Shown: in pieces, positions 30,144 through 37,252 of the stretch
How the letters are laid out: every line of letters starts with the position of its first letter
Position numbering within the stretch: the stretch's first letter is position 1
From: a virus
DNA: 64,000 nt
Strand: one strand, 5' to 3'
Virus record (IMG/VR): IMGVR_UViG_3300025133_000023
Translations under genes and position numbers: made by a program
The notes under the pieces: model-generated
Seen by the model: the letters and a program-made list of their open reading frames with translations, nothing else
Database searches by the model: none
Told to the model about the DNA's origin: nothing

Positions 30144-31301
30144 TTATTCCTTAAGTAGGCGAGAAAGCTCTTCTAGTCTTTTTTCTGGACGTTTTAAGCC
30201 AGCTACTACCGTATAGACACGAAGCTTGCCCCTACCAGATTCATAGATTCCTCTGTGAACAAGCGCATCTCCGACAATATTAGCAGTCGTGTCGAAGCCA
30301 AATTCAATAGCATCCATTAATCCCTCAACTTCTGCGAAAAGATCTCTACCTCCGACGACTACAGTAGCTACGCCCTCAGCCGTACTAAGGTCAAAGCCTC
30401 CTGCAAGCAAAGTCTTTCCAAGGTTATCCTTCAGTGCCTTACTAATAGAGGTATGAGAAGATACATCCCTTACGGTAGTAATGCCTAATAGCATACAACC
30501 ACTTAGGGAGAGTAGGGAGTCGAAATCAGCAGGATCAAAAGACGTGTACTCACTGTTCTTGATTGTAATAACGTTAAGTGTATGGAAAAGTCCAGCCACA
30601 GTGTTATTGACGGTCGGCCAGAACTGCTTGACTGTCATACGAGGATAAAGCTTCTTAATCTTATCGTTATCAACAATTAATAGTGGAGCAATCTGACCTA
30701 CTTCTGCCATAGTGCACAGATCAGTCACTAGATTCTTAGCATTCTGAGCTACTCTAGGAGAGGCACACTCTCCTGAGGTTGGTAGAGCAATCACTACGCC
30801 AGTTCTTCGTTCAGCATCAACATGACCAATATAGCGTAAATATCTCTGAGCCAGGTCGATCAAAACTTTACAAGATCCACCGCCAGATCCACCGCCTGCT
30901 CCAGCAGCCACGAAGATCCTATCAACCTTACCGAAGGTCTTAAGCATTAGGTTGTAGATGTCCTGATCACAGGATTCAGCGGCCAGTCGACCAGCTTCCA
31001 TGTTCTTTCCAGCACCCTTCAAGTCACCACCTAGATGAACCTTCTGATTCTCTGGTAGCTGTATGTGATGAAGGTCGTGCTTAGCTGTGTTGACTACAAG
31101 AGCTTTCTTATATCCAAGCTTATAGAAAGCCTCTACTAAGCGACTACCACCCTGGCCACCACCTAGGAAGGCAATTTCAATAGAGCCACCATGAGTAGAC
31201 TCAAGACCGATGTCCTCATCTTCAGGGATTTCAAAATCTTCAATAGGAAGATCAGGAATACCTAAATCAAAGTCATCTTCTTCGTTAAATTCTTCAGTCA
31301 T
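30144..31301 (-). CDS. FtsZ/tubulin-family GTPase (non-canonical; TubZ/CetZ/PhuZ-like)
   Basis: LGGGQGGSRL (T1), VVNTAKHD, GAGKNMEAGR, AGAGGGSGGG (tubulin signature variant) and SFDPADF (T7 loop). Confidence 0.88.
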   Translation of the reverse strand: MTEEFNEEDDFDLGIPDLPIEDFEIPEDEDIGLESTHGGSIEIAFLGGGQGGSRLVEAFYKLGYKKALVVNTAKHDLHHIQLPENQKVHLGGDLKGAGKNMEAGRLAAESCDQDIYNLMLKTFGKVDRIFVAAGAGGGSGGGSCKVLIDLAQRYLRYIGHVDAERRTGVVIALPTSGECASPRVAQNAKNLVTDLCTMAEVGQIAPLLIVDNDKIKKLYPRMTVKQFWPTVNNTVAGLFHTLNVITIKNSEYTSFDPADFDSLLSLSGCMLLGITTVRDVSSHTSISKALKDNLGKTLLAGGFDLSTAEGVATVVVGGRDLFAEVEGLMDAIEFGFDTTANIVGDALVHRGIYESGRGKLRVYTVVAGLKRPEKRLEELSRLLKE

Positions 31302-31340
31302 AGTAGTGACTCCTTTTTGTAGAGTAGAGTAGAGCTCTTA

Positions 31341-32315
31341 TTATACCAGATCAGTCTCTATCATCATCTTTACTAAGTCGTCAACGGTGTGCGTTGCCTC
31401 CCAGCCTAGTACCTGGTTAATTTTAGTTGGATTGCCTAACAGATTGGGGACTTCAGATGGCCTCATGAAACGTGGATCGTAATCCACATACTTTTCCCAG
31501 GCCGAATCGTCCAATCCAGCGGATCGAATTGCACTGCGTAGGAAGTCTCGAACTGAGATGGACTTGCCTGTAGCAACAATGAACTCGTCTGGCTCATCTG
31601 CATCCAGCATAAGATCCATAGCCTGCACATAATCTCCAGCGAAACCCCAATCTCTTCGGGCGTCAATGTTTCCAAGGCTGATTGTTTCCGCCTTTCCCTG
31701 TGCGATTGCAGAAATTCCAAGAGTAATTTTTCTTGTAACGAAGTCGCTCCCACGACGAGGTGACTCATGATTGAAGAGAATCCCGTTGCAGGCAAAAAGA
31801 CCATACGCTTCGCGGTAGTTTTTAACAGCCCAGTAGGCTGCAAGCTTAGCAACACCATAGGGACTCCTAGGGTAAAGAGGACTGTCTTCAGTGTAGCCAG
31901 TAGAGGGACAGTCAAGTCCACCAAATAGCTCACTAGTAGATGCCTGGTAGAACCTAGTCTCGGGAGAGTTCCTCCGAATGGAATCCAAGACTACAATGAC
32001 CGCTCTAGCATCTGTATCAAAAGTCTCTAAGGGTTCCTTAAAGGATTGCCCAACGTGAGATTGAGCAGCTAGATTGAAGTACTTCTCAGGCTTATACTCT
32101 TGAACTATCCAGTTGATAAATGAGGCGTCCTTTATGTCTCCAAAGCAGGAGATGAAGGATGGGTGATCAGCAAAAAGGGTTGTATTTTCCCCCAGCCCAA
32201 CCCGGGTACTTTTTCTCCTGTCGATCCCGACGACCGTATAGCCCTTGGCTAGAAGATGCTCGGCCAAATACGACCCGTCCTGACCCGAAATGCCTGTTAT
32301 CACAGCTGTTTTCAT
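31341..32315 (-). CDS. gmd: GDP-mannose 4,6-dehydratase; an in-frame upstream start at 32474 adds 53 aa
   Basis: TGISGQDGSYLAE, NLAAQSHV, YQASTSELFG, SPYGVAK, LFNHESPRRG and RDWG; AAGGAG upstream of ATG 32315. Confidence 0.95.
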   Translation of the reverse strand: MKTAVITGISGQDGSYLAEHLLAKGYTVVGIDRRKSTRVGLGENTTLFADHPSFISCFGDIKDASFINWIVQEYKPEKYFNLAAQSHVGQSFKEPLETFDTDARAVIVVLDSIRRNSPETRFYQASTSELFGGLDCPSTGYTEDSPLYPRSPYGVAKLAAYWAVKNYREAYGLFACNGILFNHESPRRGSDFVTRKITLGISAIAQGKAETISLGNIDARRDWGFAGDYVQAMDLMLDADEPDEFIVATGKSISVRDFLRSAIRSAGLDDSAWEKYVDYDPRFMRPSEVPNLLGNPTKINQVLGWEATHTVDDLVKMMIETDLV

Positions 32316-32473
32316 TTTAATCTCCTTAGCAAGTAACCAAGCCTTAAACTCCTCTAAGCCAGAGCATCGCTTTCGAGAGAAATGAACACTAAGCCCCTGG
32401 AAAGTAGTGAAATGCTTGCCACAACAATCAAAACCATCCTGTCCACTGACTCCAGTTACTATTGCTGTCTTCA

Positions 32474-33583
32474 TTACTGACTCCTGTACGCTTCTACGGC
32501 TGCAATGACTTCATCAACCTGTTCATTGGTCATTGTTGGGAACACAGGCAGACTAAGGAGACGATCACAAAGATCTCGGGCCACCCTGAATCCTCCCTTA
32601 TCCTTTGTAAGATAGGGAGTAGAGTCAGTGATAATCGATGGATAGTGTAAACCACAAGCAACACCAGCCTCACCTAGCCAAGCCATAAGGGCCTCTCTAT
32701 CCTCCTTACTATCACACTTATACTCATACAAGTGAAAGACAGGAACAGCTATTGGATCAATGAATGGAGCCCTATTCCCAAAGGCTTTATCATAACGCGC
32801 AGCAACCTCTCGTCGCCTAGCATTCCATGAATCCAAAGACTTAAGTGCATGTCTGAGCTGAGCAGCATGAATAGAGTCCAAGCGATGGTTATGTCCAATA
32901 ATTACATGATCATATTTTGAAGCGCTTCCTTGGTTAATGATTTGTCGAGCAACTTCAGCCAAACCAGGGCTTTTGGTAATAATTGCTCCACCCTGTCCAC
33001 AGGTTCCTAAATTCTTAGCCGGGTAAAAGGACGTACAAGCTATATCACTTAACTCACCCACCCCATAGCCCCCAGACCGGGCTCCAATCGCCTGTGCAGC
33101 ATCTTCAATAAGAGCGACGCCGTAGTCCTTGGCTAGCTCTGCAAAGAGCTTCATATCAACCATCTGTCCATATAGATGAACGGGCATGATGGCCTTAATA
33201 CTCTTCGCATCCTGTTTAGATAGTTCCTTGATACACCCATCAACACTCATTAGGTAGGTAGACGGATCTACATCCACAAACACAGGCGTAGCACCTGCTG
33301 CGGTAATAGCAAAGGCGCTTGCAATGAAAGTGTTAACGGGAACAAGAACTCTATCCCCAGGCCCAATCTCCAAGGCGCGTAGAGCAACCTCTAGAGCTGA
33401 TGTTCCACTACTACAACCAATAGCAAAATCTACACCCATGTATTCGGCAAACTCTTCTTCAAACTTATTCAAAAACGGACCACCAACAACCCACCACGAT
33501 CGAAGCACTTCTAGTACATCGTTTTCGATAGCTTGCTGAATGGGGAGATACTGACCCTTAAGGTCAACGAAGGGAACTGTCAT
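32474..33583 (-). CDS. DegT/DnrJ/EryC1/StrS PLP sugar aminotransferase (WbpE/GnnB/perosamine synthase-like)
   Basis: VPFVDLKGQY, SSGTSAL, PVHLYGQ, IEDAAQAIGA and SFYPAKNLG (PLP Lys). Confidence 0.95.
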   Translation of the reverse strand: MTVPFVDLKGQYLPIQQAIENDVLEVLRSWWVVGGPFLNKFEEEFAEYMGVDFAIGCSSGTSALEVALRALEIGPGDRVLVPVNTFIASAFAITAAGATPVFVDVDPSTYLMSVDGCIKELSKQDAKSIKAIMPVHLYGQMVDMKLFAELAKDYGVALIEDAAQAIGARSGGYGVGELSDIACTSFYPAKNLGTCGQGGAIITKSPGLAEVARQIINQGSASKYDHVIIGHNHRLDSIHAAQLRHALKSLDSWNARRREVAARYDKAFGNRAPFIDPIAVPVFHLYEYKCDSKEDREALMAWLGEAGVACGLHYPSIITDSTPYLTKDKGGFRVARDLCDRLLSLPVFPTMTNEQVDEVIAAVEAYRSQ

Positions 33584-33770
33584 TATAATAATTCCTTAAT
33601 ATGATACGAACCTTCTCGATAAGCTCTAAGTTAGCCCAAAGCTTACCTTTGGTTGCATCAATTGCTAATTGATTAAAAGGTCCTCTCAAGGGCAAGTTAT
33701 GTCTTAGATACTTGCAAGCCATATCGGCAAACTCAACCAGCAGAGCAATTTCTTCAGGAGTGAGTTCCAA
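33564..33770 (-). CDS. Hypothetical protein
   Basis: 68-aa ORF packed within the sugar operon. Confidence 0.55.
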   Translation of the reverse strand: MELTPEEIALLVEFADMACKYLRHNLPLRGPFNQLAIDATKGKLWANLELIEKVRIILRNYYNDSSLR

Positions 33771-33778
33771 AACTAATA

Positions 33779-34549
33779 CTACTTCTTATAGTCCCCAGTT
33801 CTTCCGGGGAGATTTCCGTAAAGGCCGAACTCATATCTAAAGTCCTCCGGCCAATACTCTCGATCAAGCATCCATGTTTGTGCATCGGTTGAATGTTTAA
33901 AGTTTCGAGGGATAGGTGCTAATTCCATACCAGGACCTGGTCTACATTTCTTGGGACCAAAGCCATGATGGTAATGAACTAAATAATCATCAACAACATG
34001 GGCAGGAATGGTTTCCCCATCTCCCATATCTGATGTTGGTAGGCAATGCCTATTAATTCCATCTGGAAATCTTACACCATTGTAGGCAGTCCTATCAAAT
34101 AATCTAAGCTGTGAATCTGGAAACCAAGTAGGAGCATAAGCCTTTCTTGAAAACAATGAATATCTAGGAAAACGATAAGCTGAAGATAACCCACTTAGGG
34201 CTAGGGTGGAAAGGTTTGCGCTATCACTAAGGCATTCGTCAGCACCTAGGAGAAAAACCCAATCAGTGGAAGACATATCTATAAGAAGATTTAATCGACC
34301 TGACTGATCCCAACTGTCATCATACATCCGGCGTACCTTTTGCGGCTTACTTATGTAGGTTACCCGAGAATCTTTCTCTGCAACTTCAGCTAGATATTTT
34401 TCTGTTCCATCTGTACTACCGCCATCCAAAACTATTACATGGTGACAATGCCTTGTAGCATTATGTAATGATGCCCTAATATAAAACATCTCATTCAACG
34501 TCAAAACTAGACCTGTAATTTTCATACTTGAGCCTCTAATATAGCCCAC
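33779..34549 (-). CDS. Glycosyltransferase family 2 (GT-A)
   Basis: VLTLNE, VLDGGSTDGT, DWVFLLGADE and WFPDSQLRLF. Confidence 0.85.
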   Translation of the reverse strand: MGYIRGSSMKITGLVLTLNEMFYIRASLHNATRHCHHVIVLDGGSTDGTEKYLAEVAEKDSRVTYISKPQKVRRMYDDSWDQSGRLNLLIDMSSTDWVFLLGADECLSDSANLSTLALSGLSSAYRFPRYSLFSRKAYAPTWFPDSQLRLFDRTAYNGVRFPDGINRHCLPTSDMGDGETIPAHVVDDYLVHYHHGFGPKKCRPGPGMELAPIPRNFKHSTDAQTWMLDREYWPEDFRYEFGLYGNLPGRTGDYKK

Positions 34550-35361
34550 TCTTTGGGATGAGGGTTAATAGGAAACCACAAATCTTGAAAATGATTAGGG
34601 TGTCGTCCGTTGTATCTTTTAAGATTAGGTAAGCTTTTCTTCATCTCGTAGTCGAACTCATTAAACTTTTCAGGAAGCTCTACTTCAAATTCTTTATCGT
34701 TCGTATACCAAGCCTTTCCTAGGATGCGTCTCATTCCCATAGCGCGAGCTGACCGTACCCATCCATAGTGCCAAAGTGGAATAGATAGGCTAAGCATTTC
34801 TTTACCCCCATAGTTATGAAGAGTAATCTCTTTTCCGTTAACCCTTCCAACTACATCACAAACAGGTCTACGGTTATCGTCTGTGCGGAAGTTCTTAACA
34901 GCAAAACCACTAGAACGATGACCTATTCGACAGTGACGCTTATAGAATGCAGGCCCCTGTGCAATATAGCGAGGCGTCCCATAAAAATGAGTAACCGGAA
35001 GGGAGGCAAATTGTGTTCCCCCTTTTCCCAACTGGTCTTTAAGGGTAGCCATGTGGTCTTCATGAATACCCTCGTCAGCATCCACAGCAAAAACCCAATC
35101 ACAGGAACTCATCTGGAAGGCTACATCCCAGGCCTTCTCTTGCCAGTGACGATTAAATTCAAATCCATATACCTTATAGCGAATGCGTCCTCGATACTTT
35201 GCTGCCAAATCTTCAACAATACCAACAGTATTATCTTGTGATAGGCCGACACTAATAGAAACCTCATCACAACCAACCAAGGCTTGCTCAATAGCAGCCT
35301 CCAGCCCGTAGTCCATAATTTCTACGTTCCGGGCTTTCATAATAGCTGTGATAGAAGTCAT
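34522..35361 (-). CDS. Glycosyltransferase family 2-like (GT-A)
   Basis: SQDNT, DWVFAVDADE (DxD) and LWHYGWV. Confidence 0.8.
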   Translation of the reverse strand: MTSITAIMKARNVEIMDYGLEAAIEQALVGCDEVSISVGLSQDNTVGIVEDLAAKYRGRIRYKVYGFEFNRHWQEKAWDVAFQMSSCDWVFAVDADEGIHEDHMATLKDQLGKGGTQFASLPVTHFYGTPRYIAQGPAFYKRHCRIGHRSSGFAVKNFRTDDNRRPVCDVVGRVNGKEITLHNYGGKEMLSLSIPLWHYGWVRSARAMGMRRILGKAWYTNDKEFEVELPEKFNEFDYEMKKSLPNLKRYNGRHPNHFQDLWFPINPHPKEWAILEAQV

Positions 35362-35363
35362 AA

Positions 35364-36287
35364 TTAGATAGCACTCACTACAGCATATCCATGCTCAAAA
35401 CTAATTCGGTTTACTTCCTCAGGATTAATCCCTGCAACTAGACTTAACCAAAAATCTAATTCGGCCCTGAGTGGCTCGGAGTGATCTTTTACTTCAAGAA
35501 CCTTAAGAATACCAGGCTTATTTTCACCAATAATTCGTTGATCCCAGAAGGCTAACTCCTTAGGCTTAGACATGTCATACTCTATGATACCATCAGTTCC
35601 TAGAATACTTATTTTTCTTACCTTTTCAGTATGAGCCCAACTGTAGTTAACAAGGGCATCAACCCCTGACGCCAGCCTATACAGAGAAGAGCCGGCCACC
35701 GAGATAGACTCATTGTCTAGCGATGTTCTTGACAAAAGAACAGGGTTATCTCCTGTAAGGTACTGGATAATACTAAGGTCATGAGGCAAGAGGTCTAGCT
35801 CTACACCACACTCTTGAAACTTACCCCAGTTAAGACGACTAATATTAATAGCCTTAACCTTTCCTACCTTTCCACTATCTATAAGCCTTTTAAGCTCAAG
35901 GATCTCAGGACTGAAAACGAAAATATGACCAACACAACAAGTAAGGTGACTAAAGGTTCGACTTAAAGAAAGCAACTGACTAGCATCACTATCAGACGCA
36001 GCAAGAGGCTTCTCTACAAAAATATGTTTACCCGCCATTAAGCAAAGCCTAGCGATAGCTAGGTGTGTGGACGGAGGGGTAACAATAGCTACAGCATTAA
36101 CCGTATTGTCACTAAGGATTGTTTCAATAGAAGCAACCTCCACCCCTGGATATTTGTCAGCCTGAGCTTGGGCTAGATCTGGGTCCAGATCGCATACATA
36201 CTTAAGGTCAGATATAGTGTTAAGGTTTCGAGTAATGTTGGGGCCCCAATAGCCACAACCAATAACAGCAGTCCCTAGGTTTTTCAT
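35364..36287 (-). CDS. Gfo/Idh/MocA NAD-dependent oxidoreductase (WbpB/GnnA-like)
   Basis: IGCGYWGPNITRN, HIFVEKPLA, VGHIFVFSP and DLLPHD. Confidence 0.92.
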   Translation of the reverse strand: MKNLGTAVIGCGYWGPNITRNLNTISDLKYVCDLDPDLAQAQADKYPGVEVASIETILSDNTVNAVAIVTPPSTHLAIARLCLMAGKHIFVEKPLAASDSDASQLLSLSRTFSHLTCCVGHIFVFSPEILELKRLIDSGKVGKVKAINISRLNWGKFQECGVELDLLPHDLSIIQYLTGDNPVLLSRTSLDNESISVAGSSLYRLASGVDALVNYSWAHTEKVRKISILGTDGIIEYDMSKPKELAFWDQRIIGENKPGILKVLEVKDHSEPLRAELDFWLSLVAGINPEEVNRISFEHGYAVVSAI

Positions 36288-37252
36288 AGACTGGTAGCTC
36301 CTTTAATTCTGTATTTACGCAAAAAGATCTTCATCATAGCTGAGATGACATGAGGCTTTACGTGACGATTATCATCTGTAAAGGGATCTTTGATTGCTTG
36401 GGTAATAATGTCATACGATTCAAAATATGTTGTGTTGTTATAGCTTTGACAAAAATATTCAGCAGCGGTGCGTAACGTACACTTACTGAGCCCATTAGCC
36501 ACCCAGGTATTAACGTTACGGCGGAAAGTTGCATGTAGAGGAACAGGACTTACACTCAAAATAATCTGAGCTGAAGGGTTGTGCTCTTTAAGGAGCTCAC
36601 GACACCGATTGAGATCACCCAAAACTTCATCAACCGTTTGAATATGGAACTCATGTATTTTTGGATCATAAAGCCCTATGCTAACTGGAGGCATAAGACT
36701 AAAAGTAGAGTGATCTCTCGAATCCCTCCAAGTTTCCGTTAGTCCTAGGGTAAGAATAACTACCTTAGCTGTTGTAAGGGCCTTTCTAGAGGCACTAACA
36801 TGTTTTTGGAAGTCAATCTCTTTAGACTCCCAGTCATAGTATGAGTACTCTCTAAAAGGATCAATAGCCCTTTTATCAGGATGTCTCCACCAACGCTGAA
36901 CTGGATTAAAATTACCCAAAGAGTACTCAAAGATTTGTCTCATTGAAGCACTGTTGTAAACCCTATTCCATCCACAACTAGCATGGAGACAATTGTGAGG
37001 TTCAGTTATCAAATAGTTGTATTTGGCTTTGCGCAAGAAGGTTGCAATATTTCTAGCGAAACAAGACCCCATACTTGTAATTGGGGTTCGCTGATCAATT
37101 AGATGGCATCTTCCATACTTAGCAAACTGATGAATATCTATTTTCCCTGGATTAATAAGATCAGTCAACTGAAAACGACCACCAGAAAAAGGGACAAGCC
37201 TATTACTCAGCTCTGTCGTCAACCCACTCTCCTCGCTTAATTGTAGTTTCAT
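36284..37252 (-). CDS. GSCFA-domain protein (SGNH-like)
   Basis: MGSCFARNI, LTLGLTETW, LSVSPVPL, SKCTLR and DNRHV. Confidence 0.88.
   Translation of the reverse strand: MKLQLSEESGLTTELSNRLVPFSGGRFQLTDLINPGKIDIHQFAKYGRCHLIDQRTPITSMGSCFARNIATFLRKAKYNYLITEPHNCLHASCGWNRVYNSASMRQIFEYSLGNFNPVQRWWRHPDKRAIDPFREYSYYDWESKEIDFQKHVSASRKALTTAKVVILTLGLTETWRDSRDHSTFSLMPPVSIGLYDPKIHEFHIQTVDEVLGDLNRCRELLKEHNPSAQIILSVSPVPLHATFRRNVNTWVANGLSKCTLRTAAEYFCQSYNNTTYFESYDIITQAIKDPFTDDNRHVKPHVISAMMKIFLRKYRIKGATSL

Follow-up and report, generated by a model that had tools for sequence, protein, structure and literature searches.

Mobile endonuclease open reading frames (mORFs) make gene hybrids in fungal mitochondria, as described for atp6 of Allomyces macrogynus and for atp6, atp9, cox2 and nad3 of Glomus (PMC3630166). 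In such hybrids, an endonuclease open reading frame (ORF) lying in phase with the gene brings along a diverged foreign gene end without splicing, and the native end is left stranded, still identical to that of close relatives (PMC3630166). The phage HNH element MobA of T4, at gene 39-60, deleted 55-75 nucleotides (nt) of its target ORF upon insertion and supplies a homologous replacement region that contains its nicking site (bioRxiv 10.1101/2022.08.31.505936). These are the closest described systems to the arrangement reported here for gmd, the gene for GDP-mannose 4,6-dehydratase (Gmd), in a 64,000-nt stretch (the window) of a marine phage, the 189,645-bp IMG/VR virus record IMGVR_UViG_3300025133_000023. 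The gmd ORF of the window (31341-32474, minus strand; 377 amino acids, aa) begins twice: a native 14-codon leader (copy 1) and a 39-codon insert precede a second gmd start (copy 2), which opens a foreign 5′ tract. In other phages, alleles with an intact endonuclease and empty alleles occur at the corresponding site, with shared boundaries. The locus is very probably what remains, in decayed form, of a homing-endonuclease cassette that needed no splicing and had inserted itself at the 5′ end of gmd.

As in an mORF-type hybrid, the stranded native end of the window gmd matches that of relatives and the inserted end is divergent. While mORFs replace the 3′ end of their gene (the C-terminus of the protein) and encode LAGLIDADG or GIY-YIG enzymes in mitochondria, the gmd cassette replaces the 5′ end and is of the HNH type in tailed phages; moreover, the gmd endonuclease is read from the start of the host gene and into the replacement gene without a stop codon. 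The gmd cassette functions in the manner of an mORF but falls outside the set described so far. The MobA target gene is split into two polypeptides that have gained tails, and translation bypasses 50 nt (bioRxiv 10.1101/2022.08.31.505936), whereas the gmd cassette leaves the gene whole, with about 350 nt replaced, no bypass, no stop and a duplicated start that remains; the window gmd is a single uninterrupted ORF rather than a split gene. The ShiLan insertion in an actinophage methylase gene is likewise a homing insertion that is open in frame, of HNH type and without intein or intron features; it differs in that the HNH lies out of frame in an internal loop of the host protein, and no duplication or replacement of the host gene is described for it (PMC11855218). 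Free-standing endonucleases of the T4 Seg/Mob type share intron-less homing, exclusion of adjoining recipient markers and decay by in-frame deletions, but lie between genes with a start and a stop of their own and are not known to leave a duplicated gene end (PMC2790892, PMC2988022). A literature search returned no description of the present arrangement for phage gmd or for the starts of phage genes, which is not proof of its absence.

The reading frame of the window gmd is continuous, and the Pfam model GDP_Man_Dehyd covers residues 59-371 of the ORF (profile positions 2-332 of 332, E 6e-113), so that the part from copy 2 onwards is predicted to be a complete GDP-mannose 4,6-dehydratase. Copy 1 and copy 2 are the only instances of the Gmd start motif in any of the window's six reading frames. 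An earlier note on this DNA had described duplicate 14-aa Gmd starts around 39 unrelated residues, with divergence at synonymous positions, and both are confirmed: the copies agree at 11 of 14 residues and 27 of 42 nt, with third codon positions alike at 4 of 14 only. Also present are the two translation signals that it had named: the stop codon of the upstream degT gene overlaps the first gmd ATG (TAATG), with an AGGAG in the degT 3′ end serving this ATG, and copy 2 has an AAGGAG of its own. Finally, the insert does fit the finger spacing C-x3-F-x5-L-x2-H-x5-C that the note had read in it, which corresponds to the second half of a C2H2/C2HC finger; the first two cysteines are adjacent, unlike the canonical C-x2-4-C.

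Eleven contigs from independent assemblies encode the identical 377-aa protein; Logan SRR5701579 is 100% identical to the window across 11,134 nt and JGI 3300008050 shows one mismatch to it in 6,156 nt. Since the same protein is found in independent assemblies, the structure is real, and the assembly chimera that the earlier note had considered as a refutation is excluded. The 11 carrier contigs are near-clonal and therefore carry no information on selection. A word-based search with residues 1-70 of the 377-aa protein returned only the self-match.

The native state of the gene is preserved in relatives. The Gmd proteins closest to that of the window are P0003 (77% identity) and P0004-P0009 and P0011 (63-67%), and the contigs encoding P0003, P0004 and P0006 share the phage backbone of the window. 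In these syntenic relatives a variable glycan module is followed by gmd, an IscA-like Fe-S gene, genes for proteins of 109, 101 and 71 aa, RusA and ClpP. The starts of P0003, P0005 and P0006 equal copy 1 at 14 of 14 residues and lead directly into the Gmd body, and the DNA of locus L088 matches copy 1 at 37 of 42 nt; for these reasons, copy 1 is taken as the lineage's own gmd start. Relative to these native genes, the window carries a 159-nt in-frame insertion 3′ of codon 14. The IMG/VR loci related to the window Gmd are at most 50% identical to it, and nothing close was found there for its DegT and its tubulin-like neighbour.

Behind the insert the gene is a mosaic; residues are numbered here from copy 2, and the native/foreign boundary is mapped at the protein level only. 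The window Gmd is 58% identical to P0003 over residues 1-115 and 87% identical over residues 121-324 (Fisher p 1.4e-8). In the first segment, the native relatives reach 74-83% identity to P0003, higher than in the second, and the low 5′ identity of the window is thus not general to this region. The maximum chi-square breakpoint falls at residue 111, with scattered mismatches up to residue 116. The tree built from the second segment makes the window the sister of P0003 (support 99) within the native clade of the syntenic phages; the tree built from the first places it beyond that clade (Shimodaira-Hasegawa-like approximate likelihood ratio test, SH-aLRT, 95), in a loose grouping with P0010 and the P0012/P0013/P0014 group. 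The roughly 116 codons behind the insert are therefore foreign and derive from a donor allele. A native leader, a foreign patch (the remnant and about 116 gmd codons) and a native remainder together identify a gene-conversion tract.

The comparison of the locus in other phages that the earlier note had proposed reveals a full-length in-frame endonuclease in homologous phage gmd genes, as well as empty alleles in sister phages. The Gmd homologues P0012 and P0013, both of 555 aa and encoded on AT-rich phage contigs, start with a 7-codon native-type Gmd leader behind a GGAG and continue through about 219 further residues into a complete Gmd, with no stop between insert and gmd and with a GAGGAG in front of the second ATG. 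The insert contains an N-terminal finger-like motif with adjacent Cys-Cys, then a helix-turn-helix (HTH) and a C-terminal HNH motif. It matches PHROG 'HNH endonuclease' families, including phrog_8446 (E 1.6e-7 and 5e-6), and, by tblastn against a phage database, annotated HNH endonucleases of Staphylococcus and Bacillus phages (E 2e-5). Residues 112-218 of the insert align to residues 202-284 of a protein of Bacillus phage fHSPT3 (BLASTP E 4e-12), which contains Pfam PF01844 at 241-284 and has its His-His, Asn and His positions aligned with those of the insert; the HNH motif (His-His ... Asn ... His) is thus present in P0012 and P0013, with the structural-zinc cysteines replaced. The language-model clusters nearest to the insert consist exclusively of viral HNH+HTH proteins (score 0.94). 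Searches of the insert against Pfam, NCBIfam and PDB sequences gave nothing significant, and no homologues of it were found among proteins of 120-384 aa, in IMG/VR or elsewhere in the genome of the window phage.

Filled and empty alleles of this site coexist among sister phages. The filled locus L092 and the empty locus L096 agree at 98% from the upstream region up to nt 20 of gmd, cannot be aligned beyond that point, and agree again, at 95%, from gene nt 357; for the filled L091 and the empty L116, the boundaries lie at gene nt 14 and nt 358. Both pairs display presence/absence polymorphism together with co-conversion at one site. The gmd genes of P0001, P0012 and P0013 are mosaic, and the two parts of the gene follow different histories: the 3′ segments track the phage backbone (P0012-P0015 96%, P0013-P0032 91%, P0012-P0013 81%), whereas the 5′ segments track the cassette (P0012-P0013 89%, P0012-P0015 51%). 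The leaders vary with the backbone, being MKTAIIT as in P0015 and MKSAIIT as in P0032. The pattern in P0012 and P0013 is as would be expected of homing with co-conversion. A further gmd, P0014 (L094 4001-4996; L095 493-1488), has no endonuclease and an ordinary intergenic region upstream; its first ~126 residues are of the donor (cassette) type and the remainder is of the local backbone type. P0014 may be the allele left after clean loss of the endonuclease.

The 39-codon insert of the window is likely, from its sequence and position, to be homologous to the finger and junction of the intact endonuclease. In a BLASTP comparison of the first 67 residues of the window protein with P0012, leader and finger fall on the start of P0012 (E 6e-5), and the last 13 residues of the insert with copy 2 fall on the end of the HNH region and the Gmd restart (E 2e-5). 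The adjacent Cys-Cys quirk of the remnant recurs in P0012 and P0013, and 'KEIK' directly before the Gmd start is common to all three. The 39 residues alone align to endonuclease residues 6-42 with P 0.007 (hhalign). Homology between remnant and endonuclease is considered likely from these weak pieces in combination with the same position in the gene and the same downstream boundary (around codons 116-120). With HMMER, a search of the 39 residues against 1.8 billion proteins recovered C2HC-type finger repeats (E 1e-5 to 4e-4); the best matches, P0124 and P0127, are unannotated proteins with repeated C2HC-type fingers, C-x1-2-C-x3-F-x5-L-x2-H-x5-C. No Pfam model (zinc-finger models included) or PHROG family matched the remnant, a scan of metagenomes with the 67-aa leader brought up nothing but ordinary gmd starts, and a degenerate DNA pattern, 'Gmd start then Cys-Cys', gave one chance match in IMG/VR, in a high-GC tape-measure gene. 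No promoter-like or terminator-like sites of note were seen in or beside the insert. The remnant comprises finger and junction residues only, lacking both HTH and HNH; since the HTH and nuclease parts are gone, the element is dead in the window.

The invading cassette would have consisted of an HNH endonuclease gene (Cys-Cys finger, HTH, HNH) and, joined to it without an intervening stop, some 116 codons to replace the 5′ segment of gmd (the first third of the gene), equipped with a separate ribosome-binding site and ATG. We infer cleavage, the cleavage site, the direction of transfer and start-codon usage along the following lines. The HNH enzyme would cut or nick a cassette-free gmd in a conserved stretch, either beside the insertion point, in the nucleotide-binding motif of codons 7-15, or near codon 120, just 5′ of the catalytic Ser/Thr-Glu block; the recurrent downstream boundary would fit a cut at the latter site, or may mark the first stretch identical enough to resolve recombination. 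During co-infection, the break would be repaired from a cassette-bearing genome, so that the endonuclease gene and the donor gmd 5′ segment are copied, with crossovers in two conserved islands, namely the first 14-42 nt of gmd and a block at about codons 117-120. The first 14-42 nt would be left as an in-frame leader, allowing the endonuclease to be translated from gmd's own start, and the recipient codons from about 15 to 116 would be lost and replaced by the diverged version of the donor. This short leader would provide the sole upstream homology that is independent of the variable neighbouring module. In the window phage, a later in-frame deletion would have removed the HTH and the nuclease, an estimated 170-180 codons, leaving 39. 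Gmd could now be made from the internal AAGGAG/ATG (324 aa), from the degT-coupled ATG as a protein 53 aa longer, or from both.

The insertion of an endonuclease followed by its decay, as the earlier note had suggested, is supported by the intact HNH alleles at the equivalent gmd site, by the foreign 5′ tract and by the loss of HTH and nuclease. Its further idea that the element supplied a recoded, cleavage-resistant start for gmd holds for the replacement as such; the extent is different, about 116 codons rather than just 14. The synonymous differences are not evidence of a selected recoding of copy 2, as the third positions are saturated and any anciently diverged donor allele would show the like. 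Those differences are readily explained as old, saturated divergence between alleles and need not be selected, and they would also make copy 2 a poor target.

Some observations weigh against the homing-cassette explanation. The likeness of the remnant to the endonuclease is weak when taken alone (P 0.007), and draws its force from position. The Pfam HNH model gives no direct match to the P0012/P0013 insert, and an AlphaFold2 model of the insert from a two-sequence alignment is unusable (predicted local distance difference test, pLDDT, 46). The donor segment of the window is 58% identical to the P0012 type and to native alleles alike, and no intact relative of the window's own cassette lineage was found. 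For P0012 and P0013, a single old gain with two reversions can be envisaged, less parsimonious than two gains.

A further-reaching proposal, tentative and on balance rather doubtful, is that the cassette represents a distinct 'N-terminal fusion' homing element for gene 5′ ends, devoid of splicing and of a promoter, start or stop of its own. The leader would then serve to start translation and also as an upstream homology arm that travels with the cassette, the endonuclease would exist solely as the N-terminal domain of a complete and active Gmd, and the frame-preserving deletion would reflect selection for degT-coupled translation of Gmd. Under this proposal, the fusion would be tolerated because it precedes the first Rossmann strand.

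That the 53-aa zinc-finger leader, irrespective of its origin, is now a selected part of a functional isoform, giving Gmd a metal- or nucleic-acid-binding or an assembly property, is improbable, and nothing supports such an isoform. The leader is in frame, without a stop, translationally coupled to degT and identical on 11 contigs, and the intact elements are also in-frame fusions with Gmd. However, this identity is uninformative on selection, as all copies are near-clonal, and a deletion would preserve the frame by accident with a 1-in-3 chance. The leader departs from the first Cys-pair spacing of a canonical finger and matches no zinc-finger Pfam model, a strong internal ribosome-binding site and ATG are present, and among about 200 Gmd proteins inspected such a leader was otherwise encountered only in endonuclease fusions.

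Still less probable, and indeed very unlikely, is a module-swap scar formed without an endonuclease, in which illegitimate recombination of two diverged gmd alleles during glycan-cassette exchange would have produced the partial duplication, the finger-like peptide being due to chance or to read-through of former intergenic DNA. The gmd start does mark the edge of a glycan module that varies from relative to relative and, read in another frame, the last codons before copy 2 end in an overlap of the ATGA type, as do the upstream genes in relatives. Nevertheless, the other two frames of the 117-nt insert are full of stops, and the insert is therefore not the out-of-frame tail of a former upstream gene. 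In addition, native sequence adjoins the foreign patch at either end, as in gene conversion and not in a one-sided swap, the same architecture and boundaries occur with an intact HNH gene in unrelated AT-rich phages, and the Cys-Cys finger quirk is common to the remnant and the endonucleases.

An assembly artefact, an intein or a group I intron can practically be dismissed: the metagenome origin would favour them, as would an in-frame insert in a conserved nucleotide-binding motif, a common seat of inteins, but the identical sequence comes from independent assemblies and splicing elements cannot account for a duplicated start. Among the candidates tried, an intein was rejected because no Hint or intein domain (Pfam) is found in the window leader, P0012 or P0013 and the insert precedes a second complete gene start, and a group I or II intron because 31300-33600 has no Rfam match at E<=1 and the reading frame is unbroken. 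The coordinates of the features discussed are collected in Table 1.

Table 1. Features of the gmd locus in the window, listed in the direction of transcription.
Feature	Position	Strand	Basis
degT-family aminotransferase, last gene of the upstream glycan module	32474..33583	-	Pfam DegT_DnrJ_EryC1, E 3e-102
Copy 1: native gmd codons 1-14, left stranded at the head of the long ORF as its leader	32433..32474	-	match to syntenic relatives
39-codon in-frame insert, probable homing-endonuclease remnant	32316..32432	-	BLASTP, hhalign, HMMER
Zinc-finger-like part of the remnant	about 32364-32432	-	sequence
AAGGAG ribosome-binding site, 6 nt 5′ of the second ATG, in the tail of the remnant	32322..32327	-	sequence
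Copy 2: donor-derived gmd codons 1-14, functional Rossmann start of the enzyme	32274..32315	-	sequence; Pfam Gmd match begins here
Co-converted gmd 5′ segment of donor origin, ~116 codons with copy 2 counted in	31968..32315	-	identity, segment tree, chi-square; lower boundary approximate, residue 111-116
Native gmd 3′ segment	31341..31967	-	87% to P0003; sister to P0003, support 99

As a relic, the locus derives its value from being the decayed member of a filled, empty and decayed series (L091/L092, L096/L116 and the window, respectively) with which the life cycle of the element can be tested. It would exemplify a little-described way for a homing endonuclease to live inside a gene without splicing, by a strategy in which the endonuclease carries a replacement for the piece of the gene that it destroys. 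This strategy is on record for the ends of genes in fungal mitochondria and, in a different form, for T4 MobA. The cassette would also account for the abrupt mosaic break within gmd, where the gene borders a swappable virion-glycan module. For annotation, the 377-aa and 555-aa 'Gmd' proteins in databases should be regarded as element-host fusions, the true start of the enzyme being the internal ATG.

The glycan module upstream of gmd is wholly different among otherwise syntenic phages. That of the window (32474-37252, minus strand) encodes DegT, two GT2, Gfo/Idh/MocA and GSCFA proteins; the L088 and P0003 contigs have HAD, CTP-transferase/HMGL and GT4 in this place, and L086 has NeuB, RraA-like and His_Phos. 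The start of gmd is at once the module boundary and the seat of the endonuclease cassette. Over the ~13 nt that lead up to the first gmd ATG (GGAGT.AGTA..ATG), the window (32475-32490, minus strand) resembles L088 (5225-5239), despite unrelated upstream genes (DegT and HAD, respectively). Module swaps may have their left crossover in this conserved ribosome-binding stretch.

At the other end of gmd, a TubZ/FtsZ-like GTPase gene (30144-31301, minus strand) lies between gmd and the Fe-S (IscA-like) gene in the window phage only, while gmd is directly followed by the Fe-S gene in the syntenic relatives (contigs of P0003, L086 and L088); the TubZ/FtsZ-like gene looks like a separate insertion. A scan of 77 other gmd loci for in-frame upstream extensions revealed no endonuclease-like case and three aminotransferase-Gmd fusions. 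In the IMG/VR loci L011, L014 and L025, one ORF naturally fuses a DegT-like aminotransferase, about 400 codons upstream of the gmd match and in the same frame, to Gmd, whereas in the window the two are merely coupled through their stop and start codons.

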